Shown here one piece after another: positions 750 to 59,358 of a stretch of DNA of 64,000 bases. The stretch comes from Escherichia phage pinkbiff. Made by a program: the position numbers and the translations under genes. How positions within the stretch are numbered: position 1 is the first letter of the stretch; every line of letters begins with the position of its first letter. Under the pieces are notes generated by a model, which made no database searches, was not told where the DNA came from, and worked only from the letters and a program-made list of their open reading frames with translations. The stretch is taken from the sequence record MN850603.1. The stretch is one strand, 5' to 3'.

Positions 750-2351
750 TCAACGTCTAAGCCCCTCATATGGATTTCCTCTCACTAAGTCTGTGTGAGC
801 ACCCATTGATGGTGGCTTGAATAATTTAACTTCGTTAAGACTGTTGAAAGCATCACTGGTAGCATCCACTTGGTCATCTTTAGTTTTGCCATCACCACAA
901 AAGCCTTCAAGCTCTTGAAAGTAAGCTTCATTCCAACTACCTCTCAAGACTTTTACAAGTCCAGCTTCAGAAGCAGCAGAAAATCCCGCAAAGCGGGTAA
1001 CTTTATCTTTATTTGTTGGTTTAGCTCTTGCACGATAGCCTTTCTCGGAAAGTTTCCTGATGAGTGATGTTGCGTAGGATTTACCAGCAGCGCCTGGGTC
1101 TTGAGGGATAAAAATACCAGTTCGCTTACCGTCACTTTCAGCAGTCAAATTAATTTGTGTTTCGACTCCAGAGGGTCTATCTCTAAATCTTACTACATCA
1201 ATGATATAATAGCAACCGTCTTTTTTAGATTTACCCATCTTAACACCTGCTGTCCAGTCTGGATTAGGGTTAACCTCAGATGGTAAAGTTGCTGCTAAGT
1301 CCCATGCTCTAACATCAAATACATCTTCTGGGAGTGAATCAACAATCTCACACCATTGTCTTTGCCAATAGTTTGAACCTTCTGCACGAGCCTTCCAGTT
1401 ACCGAAACGAAGTCTTGCAACGTTTACAGGTGTGTTGTTTTCAAGCTTACCGCGATACTTTGGCTCTAAGAAGTCAAGAATTGGGTTATCATCAATCGTA
1501 CCAGAGATGAAGGTGTATGTTTGAGGAATCTCAAGAGGGAACATTTCAAGAATCTTGTCTCTCTCCCAATCAGAAACCATCACACCATCATTCATTACAT
1601 ACCAACGAATACGACCACACTTTTCAGGGTCTGGGTAACCTTCTTCATCTAAGAATGGTTCTACCCAATCGTAAATAAAGTGGTCTCTATCTGGGTTCAT
1701 GGAAATCTTCATGTATGAATCACCTTCAGCACCAGAACGTAGACGAGTTTGTAGGTATGAAATCTGTGAAGCAGAGAAGTGTGTACCTTCGTCAAAGTAA
1801 ATAGCTGAGTATTCAATACCCTGATGACCTTCAGCGTGCTTTTCAAGTTCTAGGTAGGTAAACTTGATAGTTGCCCCAGAAGGGAATGTGATAGTCATTT
1901 TCTGCTCGTGAGGAATCCCACCAAACTTACCAAATAGTTTCTTTGCAGCAGGCCATAAACCACCTTGTAACTGTGTTGTATTTCGACGGAAATATACAGC
2001 ATTATAGTTAGGGTCTTCAATAAATCTTAAAGAGTCCATTAACAATGCGGCAGTTTTACCAGCACCAGCAGCACCACCATAGAGAACCAAGTCAGCATTA
2101 GTATTTAAAAAGACCTCTTGAGAACCCGGCTGAGGGGCTACATAGTTCTTATCAGTCATCAATTTGAAGATAAGTCTAACTTGGTCTGGTGTGTATCTTA
2201 ATAAAGTCAGAATTTGAGTTGGAAGGAATTTAGAGGGGTCTTTACCGAATGATTTGATAATTTCTTTTACTTCATCAGAAAGCCCCAACTCTCCAGCTAG
2301 GACTTTCCTAACATCTTCCACTCGCTTCTGCTTAACAGCATTTAAGTCCAT
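750..2351 (-). CDS. terL: terminase large subunit
   Basis: Walker A GGAAGAGKT near N-terminus, about 530 aa; ATG at 2351 preceded by GGAGGTG. Track ORF starts at an upstream TTG (2366). Confidence 0.88.
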   Translation of the reverse strand: MDLNAVKQKRVEDVRKVLAGELGLSDEVKEIIKSFGKDPSKFLPTQILTLLRYTPDQVRLIFKLMTDKNYVAPQPGSQEVFLNTNADLVLYGGAAGAGKTAALLMDSLRFIEDPNYNAVYFRRNTTQLQGGLWPAAKKLFGKFGGIPHEQKMTITFPSGATIKFTYLELEKHAEGHQGIEYSAIYFDEGTHFSASQISYLQTRLRSGAEGDSYMKISMNPDRDHFIYDWVEPFLDEEGYPDPEKCGRIRWYVMNDGVMVSDWERDKILEMFPLEIPQTYTFISGTIDDNPILDFLEPKYRGKLENNTPVNVARLRFGNWKARAEGSNYWQRQWCEIVDSLPEDVFDVRAWDLAATLPSEVNPNPDWTAGVKMGKSKKDGCYYIIDVVRFRDRPSGVETQINLTAESDGKRTGIFIPQDPGAAGKSYATSLIRKLSEKGYRARAKPTNKDKVTRFAGFSAASEAGLVKVLRGSWNEAYFQELEGFCGDGKTKDDQVDATSDAFNSLNEVKLFKPPSMGAHTDLVRGNPYEGLRR

Positions 2352-2372
2352 TAAGCACCTCCGCAAATAGAA

Positions 2373-9628: not shown

Positions 9629-10000
9629 TTATTTTTTGAGAGTCGCTACAGCAGAAAACGTTGGTTTGTTATCTGTCTGGGTTTGACCACCATTATCGGG
9701 GGTCTTCTTAGTGTCTGCTGCAATCGCTTTCATCTCACCTGCTGAGTGGGTCATGATAGTTTTACCAGCTTCCATCATCGACTTCAGGTTTACATCGTCA
9801 GTCGTCAAACCGAACTCTGCAAGCTTAGCAGCATCCCTTGTAACAATCGCCTCAAACAACTTTGCAGCAAACTCAGCAGAATTATCAATGGTCAGTTGAG
9901 CTTTTACGAGTGAGCTTTTGTTACGAGAGCCTTTTGGTCTTCCAGATGGGTTTCCAGACTGGCCTTTTTTAAACTGGCCTTTGTTTGTTCTGTTTTTCAT
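9629..10000 (-). CDS. hypothetical basic protein (123 aa)
   Basis: ATG at 10000 with AAGAGG SD; N-terminal Gly/Lys/Arg-rich segment. Confidence 0.6.
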   Translation of the reverse strand: MKNRTNKGQFKKGQSGNPSGRPKGSRNKSSLVKAQLTIDNSAEFAAKLFEAIVTRDAAKLAEFGLTTDDVNLKSMMEAGKTIMTHSAGEMKAIAADTKKTPDNGGQTQTDNKPTFSAVATLKK

Positions 10001-16679: not shown

Positions 16680-17144
16680 ATGAAAATTAAAGTAGTAGTT
16701 CAAAAAGCAATGCTTAACAATTCAACTAAAGACGAAATGTACAAAGAGATTTGTGATAAGTTGAATTGTTCAAGACATGCTGCTAAGGTTCTTGTACATT
16801 GTTTTATCTGGGAATGCTCAGAGGCTTATATGCAATATGTAGCGTTTGAAAGTTCTCACTTACTAGGTGATGTAGAAGCTGGTGAGAAGCTAAAAGAACC
16901 TGAGATGAAAACAGTTCCTAAAGTTGGTAATGTATACCCTCTTAAAGATTTCAAGACCGGAAAGATTGTTGCAAAAGGTGTAGTAGAATCTGTTTATCAC
17001 GATGGTAAATACTTACTTAAAATATTTGAGTATGATAGCCACTACACACACTTATGTGGGATTACATTCTTAGTAACAGAAGAAGACCTCATTAAGAACA
17101 ATGGCAACAAGTTTGCAGTCCCAGCTTACCAAGTTTTACGATAA
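16680..17144 (+). CDS. hypothetical protein (154 aa)
   Basis: ATG with GAAGG SD. Confidence 0.55.
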   Translation: MKIKVVVQKAMLNNSTKDEMYKEICDKLNCSRHAAKVLVHCFIWECSEAYMQYVAFESSHLLGDVEAGEKLKEPEMKTVPKVGNVYPLKDFKTGKIVAKGVVESVYHDGKYLLKIFEYDSHYTHLCGITFLVTEEDLIKNNGNKFAVPAYQVLR

Positions 17145-17157
17145 TGGTGTGATAGAT

Positions 17158-17706
17158 ATGGAAAAAGATAACTTAAAAGGTGTTGAAGATAACTACCTAG
17201 TACTTGATTGGAATGATATTCGGGAAGCACTATCTGAAGAAAGCCTTGACCTGCTAGAGCAACTTATCTTCTCAGTACGCCATACCAGAGGTATTGTAAA
17301 CGGTAAAGAGCCACTTGAAGGAATCTTTGTAGAGAAGTCTTATCCGTTCTATGAAGATACTTTGCAGAAAGTTAAAATGTACTTTAAACAGAAGAACCGT
17401 AAAGTGGTCACTATGGTATCTCTTGGTGGACAGAGTATGTCTATTATGGAAGATATCAACCCTAAGAGACCAAGTAAGGGTGTATGTATAAAAATCACAG
17501 GTCATGAAGAGTATGTCTCAGCAAGTGATTTTAGTGTGTTCTGTAATGGTTCTGCTGTCTTTAAGGGGTTTCACTATGAAATCCGAGTGTACCCAATCAA
17601 GGGAGATGATATCATGATGCAGATATTTGATAACAACAATGGATTCACTCATTTTTATCAGACAACCAAGTCATCATTAAAAACAGTTTTAGAAAACCTG
17701 ATTTAA
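17158..17706 (+). CDS. hypothetical protein (182 aa)
   Basis: First ATG after the previous stop; track ORF begins earlier in an overlapping frame. Confidence 0.5.
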   Translation: MEKDNLKGVEDNYLVLDWNDIREALSEESLDLLEQLIFSVRHTRGIVNGKEPLEGIFVEKSYPFYEDTLQKVKMYFKQKNRKVVTMVSLGGQSMSIMEDINPKRPSKGVCIKITGHEEYVSASDFSVFCNGSAVFKGFHYEIRVYPIKGDDIMMQIFDNNNGFTHFYQTTKSSLKTVLENLI

Positions 17707-17715
17707 AATATCTTA

Positions 17716-17744
17716 AGAGCCTCCTTAATTGGGGGCTTTTTATT
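17716..17744 (+). terminator. rho-independent terminator ending the plus-strand operon
   Basis: agagcctcc-ttaatt-gggggct hairpin followed by TTTTTATT. Confidence 0.7.
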
Positions 17745-17749
17745 GAGTA

Positions 17750-19330
17750 AAATTTACGAAATTTATATTTTTATAAAATTTTATCGGTTGTCCCAACCTC
17801 TGGGTCACCATCATATGTGAATAAAATATCTATCCTTCTTAACAGCCTTCTTAATCTTACTCTCTATGTAGTTATATAGTACTATATAGTATCTTAGTAA
17901 CTATCTAGTGGTCTTAATAGCCCTCTGTATAACCCTTCTAACAAGCCCTCTAACAAGCCTTCTAAACACTCTTCTAACAAGCCTTCTTAACAACCTATAC
18001 AATCACCTTAATCATCCATCTACACCCTCTTAGAAGCTCCTATACACCTCTTAATCTCTAGGTTACCTATGTTACCCTCTATAGGTGTTCACTAGGTATT
18101 ACTAAGCCTCTATATAGACTGTTTTAACAAACTTAACAGGAATATCTTTACAGACCTTATCTCACAAGGTCTAACACGGTACTAACAAGGTATCTTATAA
18201 GCCTGTTTCTACCTGTATTTTTAAAATACTGTCTAGGTAATTATTCAGAATTTTAAAATTTTTATAAAATAGAGCTATCAAGTCATTTTTTAGGGTCTTT
18301 GAAGGAACTGAAAAATATCTGTCTAGGATGTATATCTGCTTGGTAGCCCTTAACAGCTCCCTTACAAGTACTTTGCAGAATTTTAAAATATCATTAACAG
18401 TTTCTTAACAGTTCTCACATCTTCTTAACAACTCTTCAAAGGTCTTAACAGATTCTTAACAGAACTAACAAGGGCTTAACAGTTTTCTAGGGATTGGTAA
18501 CAATACCAATTAACAAGTACTGAATAGGCTTTACAGAATCTTAACAGATGACTAACAAGAGCTAACAAGTTAATTTTAAAGAGTTATTTTGTTAAGATAA
18601 TTAACAAGTTCCTAACAAGTGTTTAATCTTTTTAACAAGCTATTAACATGGTCACTACTCTTTTCTTATCGTTCCCTTTCCTTTCTTAGTGACTTCTTAA
18701 ACATACCTCTTAAAAGCTCTTAAAAGCTCTTTATAGGCTCTTTTAAGTCCCTCCCTAGTATTTACCCCTCAACTGTATGGATAGCTCTTTATAGGGCTTT
18801 ACAGGAGCTTTTAAGGCTATGCCAAAGGTTCTTACAAGGTTTTTACGTGGTCTTAACAGAGATTTAACAAGGTGCTAACAAGAATAACTATGTAGGGTTT
18901 GTTAAGAAAATGTTAAAAAAATGTTAAGGGGGCTAGCATTTACGTAACTTTTAAGCTACTTCAAAGTAACTTTATAACCCCTATAACATGCTTTTTAATA
19001 GCTATCAAGGGGTTTGTTTAATCATTCACAAGATACTAGCCAGCCTATAAGCTTTCACCCTTATAAGATTCTTTTAAGGCTCTGGGAAGCTTTATAAAGG
19101 GCTTTTAAGGGTGAGGTAATGCAATCCCTTAAGTTAGGTTAATAAGGCCGTTATAGGGCTTTATAGAGCGTTTAAATGGTTGCCCTTCCCTTTCGGGTTA
19201 TGGGCTTATATTTAAGTTGATTTGATAAGAGGTTATAGAGTAGACTATAGAGTTATTGCTTTTTAAGGTCTAGTAAGATTCTGGAAAGGAAAGGGAAAGG
19301 GTTTGTATAAGGATTCGATAGACGTAAAAA
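17750..19330. repeat. 1.6 kb non-coding iteron-rich region (over 30 copies of CTTAACAG / CTAACAAG-type motifs plus CTTTTAAG / CTTTATAG motifs; AT-rich blocks)
   Basis: No ORF of any size with SD; dense short direct repeats at roughly 8-12 bp spacing (e.g. 17935-17995, 18395-18660, 18850-18880); bounded by convergent terminators. Confidence 0.8.
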
Positions 19331-19388
19331 AGCCCCTATGAGATAGATTCTATCGAATCCATTTTGAGTAGGGGCTGTTCAGGTATCT
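19329..19388 (-). terminator. rho-independent terminator ending the minus-strand small-gene array
   Basis: Minus strand: AGCCCCTA ... TAGGGGCT stem (30-nt loop, itself an inverted repeat) followed by TTTTTT. Confidence 0.55.
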
Positions 19389-19414
19389 GGGGCTATTTAG
19401 CCCCGTTGCGTCGA

Positions 19415-19663
19415 TTAGTTGTAACCTTGTTTGCTGTAGTACAGGGAGACAATCAAATCACCCCAGTAATGATAGTGATGCTCATCGTTTATGGCCTCTT
19501 TTACGGCATCTTTCCAGAAGTCATCAATAGGGTTATAGTCTGGGATAACTTGCTTGATAACTGTCTTCACTAAGGAAAAGCATTCATCAGTTCCGCCGAT
19601 ATCAAATTTAACGTCCAGAGTATAACAGCCATAAGCATTTACAGTAGCGCGGATAGTTGCCAT
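19415..19663 (-). CDS. hypothetical small protein (82 aa), cassette gene 1
   Basis: ATG at 19663 directly preceded by the conserved cassette ...CTAGGAGATTCAAAAATG. Confidence 0.6.
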   Translation of the reverse strand: MATIRATVNAYGCYTLDVKFDIGGTDECFSLVKTVIKQVIPDYNPIDDFWKDAVKEAINDEHHYHYWGDLIVSLYYSKQGYN

Positions 19664-56401: not shown

Positions 56402-56658
56402 GTAAGCCTCTTTTAAGTAACTATTAAGTTTTAATCTTTTATCTTAACGTATTCTATACGTTATACTTTAAAGCTTTTTAAAAGCTATTAAATAATCTTT
56501 TAAGAGTTTTAAAGTATCTGTATAGTTAAACTGTTAAGTAACCTTTTAAGTAAAAACCCACTTCGCAAAGATTAACACCTTGTCAAGTACATTGTCAACT
56601 TGCTTTTTATAATTTTTTGCAGTAATGTATGAGGTTAATGATTTTAGAGGGAGTAAAA

Positions 56659-59358
56659 ATGGAAAACGTAGATTTTAAAAACTTACATTTGGTTGGTGAT
56701 ACAGAAACTGATGGTTTACTCCTTGAGTTCACTAAAGTGCACGTAATGGCTTTCGCAGACTATAAATCTGACGAGGAAGAGCCACCTGTATGGGTCTTTA
56801 CAGATGAACCTATCCTCGGTCACAAGTACACTAAGTACATCAAAGGTGGTTTACGTGAAGGTGTTGAATTTGCGTTAAAGGCAAAACGTCTTTGCATTCA
56901 TAATGGTCTCGGTTATGACTGGTGGGTTTTCAATCACATTGCACCTGATTTATGGAACTTTGATAATCCAAAGTGTAAACCGTGGAGTAATTTCTTTCAG
57001 GACTCTCTTATCCAGTCTCGTGTTCAGTGGATGGATAGGCCAACCCCAAAGGGTTATAAAGGTGCTCATGGTTTGGCTGCATGGGGTGCTCGTGTTGGTG
57101 TCCGTAAACCAGAGATTGAACATTGGGGTGTGTGGAATGCAGAAATCTTCACTCGTGTTGTAGAAGATATCCGTATTAATGCCAAAACTAAACGGGCACT
57201 TGATAACGAGTATCTCAAGCTTAAGAAGTGTGGTATAGACACTTATGAGACTTACATGCGAGCTAAAGAGACATCTTTCTGGATGAGCCAGCAAGCTATC
57301 AATGGTTGGAAAGCTGATAAAGAGCTTATGGAGTTCCATGTAAAGGAACTTGACAAGTTGACTAATGAGCTTGCTTCAGAGGTTGAACCACATCTTCCTC
57401 CAACTATTAAGACCAAAGGTAAAGTCACTGGAGAAGAGTTTGCAAAAGCTTGGAATGAGTATGTTGAAACATTCGGTCATGCAGATGGACTGAAGAGAAT
57501 TACCAAGTACCCTAAAACAAAGTATCGTCAGCAGGTACGTAACGGTGAGATGCAGACATACGAAATCAAGCCATTTGGTAAGCCAACTACAAAGATTTTT
57601 AACATTGAAAAGAGAAATTGCTATACACCAACCAACTCTGTAACTGGTGAAGAGTACAAGGAAGGCTTTGTAGCAATGAAGGATGCTCGTGCAATTTGCA
57701 ATGAGTTGAATGCAAAGATTGGCAAGAAATGCAAAGACTGGAAGCCAGTAAAAACAGTCAAGACTGTGAAGTACTATAACAGTCACGTTGTCAATCACTT
57801 TGAACTTGAGTCAAGTCGCTACACAGGTTTGATTGATGCACCATATACACCAATTGAGTTTGAAGTTTCTCGTATGACTCAGGTAGCAGTTGTTAAAGAC
57901 TACTTGAAATCAGTTGGTTGGATTCCAGATGACTGGAACTACAAGAAAGACTCAGACGGTCGCCCTGTCAAAGTTTGTCGTTTCAAAGACAATAAAAAGA
58001 TGATTACAAAACACCCTAAGTGGCAGGAAATGGTTGAGCGGTGTGGTTTGAGTTATGTTGAACATGAAGGTGTCCAGTATATTGAGCATAACTGGTCTGT
58101 GAAGAAATACACAGATTTGCTTGAGCCTTGCTTAATCCGTACTTCACCAAAACTTACTGAATCATCTTATGATACGATTGAAGGTGAGCTTGGACAGAAG
58201 ATTGCTAAATACTACACTTTGATGCACCGACGCAGAACTATTGAGAACTCAAAGGATGATGAAAAAGGTTGGTTGAACCAGATTCGTCCTGATGGTCGCC
58301 TTAGTGCTGGTGCAATGGTGTTTGGTACTTCAACTGGACGTATGACACAATATGGTATTGTAAACGTACCGTCTGGTGCTGCTGTCTATGGAGCACCTAT
58401 GAGGGAGGTGTGGACTTGTGAAGATGGTACAGATATCATCTCCGTAGACCAAAACTCAGCCCAGCTAGTTCTTCTTTGTAACTTTATGGGTGATGAAGAC
58501 TTCACTAAAGCGGTAACTGAGGGTAAAGAGTCAGTAGAGTTCACTAAGCAAGATGATGGTAGATACTACTGTAAACATCTTGACAAGTATCTTAACCCAG
58601 AAACTGACAAGTATCTGCGTTATGATGCTGAAAATGACCTCTATGAAGTCTACACAGGGACTGATGCGCATACACTGAACAGTATTTACTTTGGTCTTAA
58701 CAAAGAAGAGGATATTGTTCGTTGCAGGGAGACACAGGATGAGGAACTTCTCCACGAGATTACAAAAGGTCGTAAGAAGAGCAAAAATGGCATCTACGCC
58801 CTGTTATTTGGAGCCGGAGACGAGAAGTTTGCAAAAACTATCAAGGCATCATCTACGGAAGAGGGTGCATTGACTAAACAAACTTACTTTGTGCGTCTAC
58901 CTAAGATTAAAAAGCTGCTTGATAGACTAGAGGAAGACTTCAAAGCAACTAAGAAAGCACTTGAAGAGGTTTTCGGAAAGACTTCTGCAATTGCAAAAGG
59001 TGGCTATATCAAGGTTGCTGGGGCGTGGTTATGGTGTAAATCTCCACATAAGTTATTGAATTACACACTTATGGGCAGTGAGGCGCAGGTGCAGAATGAG
59101 GGTATTAACTTGGCTAACAGGGAGTTAACAGAGCGCAAGCTTACAGTTCTAAATGGTAGGAAGCCAGCTATTGGTGCTAGGTGGGTCTGTAGTTACCACG
59201 ATGAGGTCTCTTTAGAGGTTCCAACCAAAGATGTACCTGATGTTAAGGAGATTATTGATAGAATGTATGGTCAAGCATCAAAAAATCTTGGATTAAAGAG
59301 TAAGACGCTTGTTACAGGCACTGGTAAGGTAGGTAAGACATGGTACGCCGTACACTAA
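56659..59358 (+). CDS. DNA polymerase, family A, with 3'-5' exonuclease domain
   Basis: Exo I L-V-G-D-T-E-T-D-G; motif B-like R-K-K-S-K-N-G-I-Y-A-L-L-F-G-A-G; motif C Y-H-D-E; ATG 56659 with GAGGGAG SD. Confidence 0.88.
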   Translation: MENVDFKNLHLVGDTETDGLLLEFTKVHVMAFADYKSDEEEPPVWVFTDEPILGHKYTKYIKGGLREGVEFALKAKRLCIHNGLGYDWWVFNHIAPDLWNFDNPKCKPWSNFFQDSLIQSRVQWMDRPTPKGYKGAHGLAAWGARVGVRKPEIEHWGVWNAEIFTRVVEDIRINAKTKRALDNEYLKLKKCGIDTYETYMRAKETSFWMSQQAINGWKADKELMEFHVKELDKLTNELASEVEPHLPPTIKTKGKVTGEEFAKAWNEYVETFGHADGLKRITKYPKTKYRQQVRNGEMQTYEIKPFGKPTTKIFNIEKRNCYTPTNSVTGEEYKEGFVAMKDARAICNELNAKIGKKCKDWKPVKTVKTVKYYNSHVVNHFELESSRYTGLIDAPYTPIEFEVSRMTQVAVVKDYLKSVGWIPDDWNYKKDSDGRPVKVCRFKDNKKMITKHPKWQEMVERCGLSYVEHEGVQYIEHNWSVKKYTDLLEPCLIRTSPKLTESSYDTIEGELGQKIAKYYTLMHRRRTIENSKDDEKGWLNQIRPDGRLSAGAMVFGTSTGRMTQYGIVNVPSGAAVYGAPMREVWTCEDGTDIISVDQNSAQLVLLCNFMGDEDFTKAVTEGKESVEFTKQDDGRYYCKHLDKYLNPETDKYLRYDAENDLYEVYTGTDAHTLNSIYFGLNKEEDIVRCRETQDEELLHEITKGRKKSKNGIYALLFGAGDEKFAKTIKASSTEEGALTKQTYFVRLPKIKKLLDRLEEDFKATKKALEEVFGKTSAIAKGGYIKVAGAWLWCKSPHKLLNYTLMGSEAQVQNEGINLANRELTERKLTVLNGRKPAIGARWVCSYHDEVSLEVPTKDVPDVKEIIDRMYGQASKNLGLKSKTLVTGTGKVGKTWYAVH

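Follow-up and report, generated by a model that had tools for sequence, protein, structure and literature searches.

What occupies the 1.6 kb of DNA in Escherichia phage pinkbiff where two convergent blocks of genes leave a gap between them? The gap, at 17745-19330 of a 64,000-nucleotide stretch of this phage (sequence record MN850603.1; hereafter the window), is filled with short sites built on a TTAACA core. The first-pass annotation, made from the letters alone, had described an iteron field between convergent terminators and proposed a replication origin or a protein-binding array. Judged by alignment to related phages, the gap is the place where genomes of a Felix O1-type (Ounavirinae) phage join in a concatemer, and in it a terminator, a left spacer, a direct terminal repeat (DTR), a right spacer and a second terminator follow each other. 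We further propose, at a probability of roughly 0.55, that the array of sites in this junction is a nucleoprotein platform for recognition and cutting by the terminase, with a protein of the DUF5681 family as its likeliest binder.

The terminal repeats of related phages align inside the gap. The record of phage Pr103Blw carries identical 581-bp copies at both of its ends, determined with PhageTerm (PMC8303462), which align end to end with 18342-18933; the 618-bp DTR annotated in UAB_69 aligns, again end to end, with 18340-18935. In UAB_Phi87, another Felix O1-like phage, a DTR of 608 bp was demonstrated by Bal31 digestion and run-off sequencing (PMC4837284); its GenBank record was opened away from the physical ends and gives no boundary positions on the window. 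At least eight independent records have an end at one of the two limits; in those of CRP22, SPT-1, NJ12, SeKF_63, NBEco005, GE_vB_7A and GE_vB_B1 the first or last base is only a few bases away from 18342 or 18933, the end of NJ12 corresponding to 18333. Because the DTRs of relatives align there and independent assemblies break at both limits, we identify the presumed iteron field with a concatemer junction. The comparison with related phages, which had been suggested as a check, is what places the repeat on the window; the correct annotation is likely terminal repeat plus junction, and the origin label a mislabel. The parts of the junction and its two boundaries are as follows:

18342-18933, both strands: homologue of the direct terminal repeat, 592 bp, present once, as it would be in a concatemer or in an assembly closed into a circle (alignment to the DTRs of relatives).
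17745-18341, both strands: left unique spacer, outside the DTR, bounded by the terminator and by the mapped left end of the DTR.
18934-19330: right unique spacer with the second-family motifs CTTTTAAG, CTTTATAG and CTTATAAG; G-rich on the plus strand, a mirror of the left spacer.
18327-18355, both strands: invariant left cut-site context, TGTATATCTGCTT before and GGTAGCCCTTAACA after the cut; 27 columns in a row without a difference among 11 phages from two genera.
18898-18935, minus strand: three inverted copies of the motif (TGTTAAG) with an 11-bp period, abutting the right cut-site context, TGTTAAGGGGGC before and TAGC after the cut.

The columns of the right boundary are also invariant in 11 phages of two genera, with mapped DTR ends at 18933 and 18935, and Tandem Repeats Finder (TRF) reports the inverted copies at 18900-18928 (period 11, 2.6 copies). 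The GCTAGC at this boundary is palindromic. Positions 18344-18355 (TAGCCCTTAACA) and the right-end element form a short terminal inverted repeat: read inward, both boundaries give one element, TAGCCC(CC)TTAACA, in mirror orientation. Since the same element stands at both boundaries, the repeat, and hence each virion end, opens with an inverted terminal element joined to a copy of the motif. The first motif site begins 8 bp inside the left boundary, the three phased inverted sites stop 6 bp inside the right one, and the copies adjoining the two boundaries point inward. We infer that the boundary element is the target of a nuclease.

What, then, are the sites that fill the repeat? More than 30 copies had been counted in the gap at first pass. 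This number holds for the degenerate core T[AT]ACA[AG] (consensus TCTTAACAG/CTAACAAG), which occurs 32 times on the plus and twice on the minus strand, against about 3.5 expected per strand; it does not hold for the exact words TTAACAG (10 copies) and CTAACAAG (9 copies), present in the gap on the plus strand only. A position weight matrix (PWM, threshold 8) with the consensus TCTTAACA(A/G)G finds 31 plus-strand and 2 minus-strand sites, and elsewhere 1.0 per kb per strand. The proposed test of motif enrichment, made here against the rest of the window, gives a density in the gap about 20 times the background: the densest 300-bp stretch holds 19 sites, and no other 300 bp of the window more than 5. 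Even counted over the whole window and both strands, the exact words are in excess (TTAACAG 38 versus 17.8 expected, CTAACAAG 12 versus 3.5), both above all 100 shuffles. The sites are grouped in these blocks:

18348-18650, plus strand: main array, about 21 TCTTAACAG/CTAACAAG sites, all oriented alike and placed 11 or about 21 bp apart.
18796-18882, plus strand: second cluster of the same family (family 1), five sites.
18122-18189, plus strand: five phased family-1 sites in the left spacer (PWM hits at 18122, 18131, 18145 and 18180, a weaker one at 18169; column identity 0.82-0.99).
18700-18815, plus strand: repeats of a second family (family 2) within the DTR, CTCTTAAAAG x 2.5, CTCTTTATAG and GCTTTTAAG.

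Inside the repeat, the first two blocks account for 23 of the 32 plus-strand sites; the remaining 9 are in the left spacer, those of a 12-bp tandem array among them. Nearest neighbours are 9-13 bp apart in 15 cases (exactly 11 bp in nine) and 20-22 bp apart in 6. By a circular statistic, a period of 10.5-10.75 bp gives the strongest phase coherence; inside the DTR the value is R = 0.61, attained by none of 3000 random placements. The spacing of roughly one helical turn noted at first pass is borne out, at 10.5-11 bp. Phased at one helical period, the sites lie on one face of the helix; such phasing is, on the evidence of the spacings, the geometry of cooperative binding on one DNA face. The protein-binding half of the earlier proposal fits these short, one-strand, helically phased sites, which inside the repeat are conserved above the DNA between them and which are kept across genera.

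A second repeat family had also been reported, and its enrichment is confirmed: CTTT[TA][AT]AG occurs in 8 plus-strand copies in the gap and 38 in the other 62 kb, an enrichment of about 8-fold, with CTTTTAAG, CTTTATAG and CTCTTAAAAG among its members. As the two families differ by a single base (TCTTAAAAG versus TCTTAACAG), the second may be a degenerate form of the family-1 site.

Repeats in a non-coding gap could also be functionless products of replication slippage, and one part of the locus behaves in this way. It lies in the left spacer:

17830-18060, plus strand: C-rich, G-poor tract, including a 12-bp tandem array, CCTTCTAACAAG x 4.9, at 17934-17993 (TRF period 12).

This tandem array varies among relatives and is less conserved than its surroundings (column identity 0.73 versus 0.86). 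It is the exception: within the DTR, column identity is 0.90 for motif and 0.81 for non-motif positions. In ten relatives, the left spacer and the repeat align over 97-100% and the right spacer over 60-100%, with identities of 70-96%; the left spacer is 74-95% identical over 97-100% of its length in the ten, and the right spacer 77-96%. The neighbouring genes fare no better. In four Mooglevirus-type phages only 31-68% of the length of the flanking genes can be aligned (35-38% for ORF24), and ORF23 is only 68-74% identical across relatives, below the right spacer. The non-coding junction is conserved as much as or more than the genes around it, and from these alignments selection on it is evident. 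Together with the persistence of core, phasing and orientation across four mostly unalignable lineages, described below, this makes slippage a very unlikely source of the array.

The same organization is found where the sequence itself can hardly be followed. The record of Erwinia phage M7 (Kolesnikvirus) begins and ends with an exact 444-bp repeat; the DNA of this phage is unalignable with the window except for one match of 75-85 bp. The M7 repeat is filled with the core tCTTAACA at spacings of 11 and 20-22 bp; the sites are plus-oriented in the first half of the repeat and minus-oriented in the second half and the right flank. For SPARTY, a Kolesnikvirus related to M7, a DTR of 439 bp was obtained with PhageTerm. 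In a further lineage, Pectobacterium phage Wc4 has a 1.4-kb gene-free junction between terminators, with ten TTAACA and ten TGTTAA sites in the same arrangement; this gap is a probable terminal-repeat junction too. In the Wc4 record (MN270891, deposited as circular) the junction crosses the record start (L147 14819-16040 and L148 1-188). Altogether, motif, phase and orientation are kept across four lineages whose DNA is otherwise mostly unalignable; that they outlast the sequence around them is good evidence for a conserved binding protein.

Which protein binds is a separate matter. The array could serve a protein with no part in packaging: a phage protein that protects or condenses the ends, a transcription silencer at the termini, or a host winged-helix response regulator. 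Phasing and conservation point to some binder without naming it. CTTAAC-N5-CTTAAC, found many times in the gap (for example at 18444-18461), has the head-to-tail hexamer-N5-hexamer format and 11-bp period of OmpR/PhoB-family boxes such as the PmrA/BasR box; CTTAAC matches five of six half-site bases and is one base away from the Salmonella PmrA half-sites CTTAAG and NTTAAT (PMC3973317). However, the sixth base differs from the published half-sites, so that their consensus finds no exact match; there are tens of sites instead of two half-sites, the location is not that of a promoter, and no gene resembling a response regulator is found among the proteins scanned. A search with the IHF consensus gave counts at chance level and no exact IHF site in the gap.

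Similar arrays do occur outside this phage group. When viral contigs were scanned for three successive TTAACA units with an 11-bp period, at least 120 loci came up, mostly isolated matches; dense arrays of this period are found mainly in Ounavirinae and in a few unrelated contigs. Three of the latter, L069 (7290-7530), L085 (4390-4500) and L062 (595-700), carry non-coding TTAACA/TGTTAA arrays at an 11-bp period and have no translated similarity to the window; one comes from a 169-kb contig. The array of L069 shows an orientation switch and an internal GGGGGCTAGC, as at the right boundary in the window, followed by a sigma-70-like promoter and a gene. An array upstream of a promoter in an unrelated contig speaks for a binder of the non-packaging kind; the outermost copies, tied in mirror orientation to both invariant cut sites, speak against it, and are most simply explained by the cutting machinery. 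We regard a non-packaging binder as possible but less likely. In its most specific form, about 35 half-sites resembling PmrA/BasR boxes (CTTAAx-N5-CTTAAx) would recruit or titrate the host regulator of LPS modification, in a phage that infects via the LPS core, as part of the terminus architecture or as a decoy that rewires the envelope response; this form we consider highly improbable.

Could the junction also be an origin? The phased repeats would then bind an initiator, of the phage or of its host, as iterons, and the AT-rich tract beside the left boundary would be an unwinding element:

18200-18300: AT-rich tract with a palindromic TTTTAAAATTTTTATAAAAT core (palindrome I11), 40-140 bp outside the left DTR boundary.

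The AT-rich stretch reported near 18250 is confirmed, with a GC fraction of 0.25 at 18200-18299 and about 0.39 over the window; values of 0.24-0.27 are also found at 18500-18650. As in iteron origins, direct repeats adjoin this tract of 25% GC, and the ends of a linear replicon can double as origins. Iterons of known origins (lambda ori, P1 oriR, plasmid oriV) are usually 17-22 bp long and number 3-7, and the initiator gene lies beside them or overlaps them. The unit here is, by contrast, a core of 8-9 bp at an 11-bp period in more than 30 copies, which differs from the classical origins. No initiator, helicase-loader or primase gene is recognised beside the gap, the scanned neighbours matching only families of unknown function; DnaA boxes are about as frequent as by chance (23 versus 20.5 expected), with a single one-mismatch box in the gap. 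The proposed GC-skew analysis puts the gap at a local maximum of the cumulative curve, between convergent genes, and not at a minimum; the window minimum is near 56 kb. We find no support for the origin and consider it unlikely.

The cumulative skew minimum falls at 56402-56628, in the divergent gap between leftward genes and the DNA polymerase gene (56629-59358, plus strand), which would be a more conventional place for an origin. Near the AT-rich tract, an exact 14-bp direct repeat, CAGAATTTTAAAAT, occurs at 18246-18259 and 18376-18389, that is, 96 bp outside and 35 bp inside the left DTR boundary; a string similar to CAGAATTTTAAAAT precedes the first TTAACA sites in Pectobacterium phage Wc4.

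The setting of the junction is that of its relatives. The 1.7 kb around the gap match 256 phage records, nearly all of Felix O1-like myoviruses (Felixounavirus and relatives), the closest being Escherichia phage Tribble at 95% identity; by these matches, the source genome of the window is a Felixounavirus. One record named as a Staphylococcus phage and one partial protein attributed to Staphylococcus aureus also match this enterobacterial phage group, and are probably mislabelled or contaminant. In Felix O1 the counterpart is the gap between ORF24 and ORF23 (NC_005282, 12306-13927). On either side of the gap in the window we find:

17101-17706, plus strand: ORF24 homologue, the last gene before the plus-strand terminator.
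17715-17744, plus strand: intrinsic terminator at the end of the rightward gene block; stem AGAGCCUCC/GGGGGCUUU followed by a U-run, -15.2 kcal/mol, also found in a consensus scan.
19329-19388, minus strand: intrinsic terminator at the end of the leftward gene block; 8-bp GC stem, inner hairpin and U6, -23.1 kcal/mol, z = -4.2.
19415-19663, minus strand: Gp23 homologue (Felix O1 ORF23), an 82-aa acidic protein adjoining the genome end.

Gp23 was detected in Felix O1 virions by proteomics (9.7 kDa, 4 peptides; PMC3185647). That two convergent terminators bracket the gap, as first proposed, agrees with the folding of both and with relatives, which annotate terminators at matching positions (the minus-strand one in Tribble and Moogle).

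The absence of a credible open reading frame (ORF) is upheld as well: the longest in 17745-19330 has 41 aa, and each of the six frames contains 32-55 stop codons. In well-annotated relatives the gap is without genes and carries at most 'repeat_region' or 'terminator' features. Some GenBank records do annotate tiny ORFs here, which would fit small peptides, or else a structured non-coding RNA could be made. Against both, the motif carries TAA on both strands and open stretches extend to at most 70 codons in every frame; a sigma-70 promoter scan reaches at most 9 of 12 matches, with 13 sites versus 9.6 by chance. The folding energy of the repeat is ordinary compared with shuffles (z = -1.3 and -1.0 on the two strands), and an Rfam scan of 17500-19600 at a permissive threshold returns nothing below E 0.27, the weak matches lying on or just upstream of the terminator. 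A product of either kind is hardly credible.

The spacers stand out by their composition. The most extreme C/G ratio anywhere in the window, with 28 C and 2 G over 80 nt, belongs to the plus strand of the left spacer; the right spacer, read on its minus strand, ranks in the top 0.1%. The mirror-image C-rich tracts are at 17921-18060 (plus strand) and 19190-19310 (minus strand). These are the strands that read-through transcripts from the convergent genes would copy, and the same mirror asymmetry is present in Moogle and M7. The C-rich spacers could accordingly be rut sites, that is, Rho-dependent backstop terminators that insulate the repeat; this suggestion concerns the flanks only and is compatible with the packaging platform. 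We find it doubtful: the motif is itself rich in C and poor in G, and the asymmetry is perhaps a by-product of how the sites are oriented. A perfect 14-nt inverted repeat, TTCCCTTTCCTTTC / GAAAGGAAAGGGAA, links the DTR (18672-18685) with the right spacer (19284-19297), its arms 598 nt apart.

If the junction is where the genome is cut, which protein would read the array? Two genes of the window are relevant:

750-2366, minus strand: large terminase, TerL (Terminase_6N, E = 2e-43; Terminase_6C, E = 3e-33).
9629-10000, minus strand: DUF5681 protein of 123 aa, candidate small terminase (Pfam PF18932, E = 7e-14).

TerL is assigned to the DTR-generating clade following published work (PMC4837284). 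The Felix O1 genome paper describes a large terminase only, no small terminase having been found (PMC3185647). The DUF5681 gene opens a long transcription unit that also contains a Ro60-like gene, the tRNA cluster, and the TerL, portal and head genes, and it is a core gene of the group, present in 296 of 296 Ounavirinae-type records retrieved. In two distant metagenomic phages it shares 20 nt with the start of the large-terminase gene, the classical position of a small terminase; in a marine relative TerL and a Mu-type portal follow 2.4 kb downstream of it on the same strand. The N-terminal arm of the protein, KGxSGNPxGRPKGSxN, is invariant or nearly so in 20 diverse homologues, and its GRP core resembles an AT-hook. 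Searched against sequences of the Protein Data Bank (PDB), the family profile has its best match in the AT-hook peptide of HMG-I(Y), non-significant at E = 0.34. Because distant homologues sit directly upstream of large-terminase genes, DUF5681 is our candidate for the small terminase not found in Felix O1, and it could plausibly read the A/T-rich TTAA core; we offer this as a lead only.

The packaging platform would work as follows. In replicating DNA, genomes would be joined head to tail through a single copy of the repeat, while the virion would carry one copy at each end. An oligomeric recognition protein would occupy the phased sites along one face of the DNA, touching it once per helical turn; some ten contacts per 100 bp would be what wrapping around a ring-shaped small terminase needs. 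With the repeat wrapped or coated by this recognition subunit, for which DUF5681 is the candidate, the large terminase would be brought to the two boundary elements of mirror orientation. Opposite strands would then be cut and the repeat copied by synthesis through it, which would leave each packaged genome with its own copy; in T7-type phages, the terminal repeat is duplicated in this manner. The convergent terminators, possibly with the C-rich spacers as Rho-loading sites, would keep RNA polymerase off the platform.

Several points weigh against this proposal. For pinkbiff itself, the boundaries are placed by homology to relatives. To our knowledge, described pac and cos sites hold far fewer elements than the more than 30 spread here over 1.1 kb, and the array reaches about 500 bp beyond the repeat. 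The array just upstream of a promoter in L069 would fit a binder of the transcription-factor type. The AlphaFold model of the DUF5681 protein is of low confidence (predicted local distance difference test, pLDDT, 65.5), and a Foldseek search against the PDB finds no structure below E = 2.9; a small terminase appears at rank 23 only, with a meaningless E of 9.5. Neither by structure nor by sequence does the protein significantly match known TerS proteins, and its assignment as one draws only on gene order and motif resemblance. Both the identity of the binder and the role of its binding in directing cutting and packaging are inferred.

How does the junction compare with known systems? Among Felix O1-like phages, the short DTRs of UAB_Phi87 (608 bp), Pr103Blw (581 bp) and UAB_69 (618 bp) are homologous in sequence and in the same position between ORF24 and ORF23. 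The concatemer junction of T7 and T3 reportedly consists of a terminal repeat flanked by short-repeat arrays, with pac signals, as Dunn and Studier in 1983 and Chung and Hinkle in 1990 are said to have described. It shares with the present locus a short exact terminal repeat, a single junction copy that has to be duplicated in packaging, and arrays of short repeats at the junction. In T7, however, the repeat is 160 bp long, the arrays are outside it and packaging is coupled to the phage's own RNA polymerase; here a main array of about 26 sites is inside a 592-bp repeat, and Felix O1-type phages are not known to have an RNA polymerase of their own.

The P1 pac hexamers, the pacL and pacR boxes of SPP1 and the R sites of lambda cosB comprise 3-7 elements in about 100-200 bp, bound by a small terminase, with the DNA bent or wrapped. 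As in these sites, several short elements flank the cleavage position, the binder here being a candidate only; unlike them, the elements number more than 30 over 1.1 kb. Many direct repeats at an 11-bp period are also found in the centromeres of ParR-parC systems: R1 parC, for instance, has ten direct iterons of 11 bp, bound cooperatively on one DNA face. No partition family is recognised among the scanned neighbours, whose PHROG hits are all of unknown function and none of which has a Pfam hit, and we know of no need for partition in a virulent phage with a linear genome. By our comparison, three traits set the present array apart from those of T7, P1 and SPP1: its location mostly inside the repeat, its more than 30 helically phased copies, and its conservation throughout the subfamily.

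A terminal repeat of about 0.6 kb was already known in Felix O1-type phages, and a few records annotate it. The papers on these DTRs give their existence and length only; the phased array, its orientation and the inverted boundary elements are not described in them. Our search of the literature found no account of the phased array in this group or of how its sites are oriented, none of inverted elements at the boundaries, and no small terminase put forward; the main text of the Bas63 PhageMaP study is silent on this gap, also as to its essentiality.

Felix O1 is a classical typing phage of Salmonella; biocontrol and phage engineering make wide use of its relatives. The analysis overturns nothing; it narrows the question of how DNA is packaged in this group to direct experiments. 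It offers a testable cis element, composed of two invariant cut-site contexts and a helically phased array present in at least four lineages, together with DUF5681 as a candidate trans factor. If the proposal is true, the packaging signal of the Ounavirinae would be defined and DUF5681 would be assigned a function; genome engineers would know which 1.6 kb to keep intact, and where to open their assemblies.

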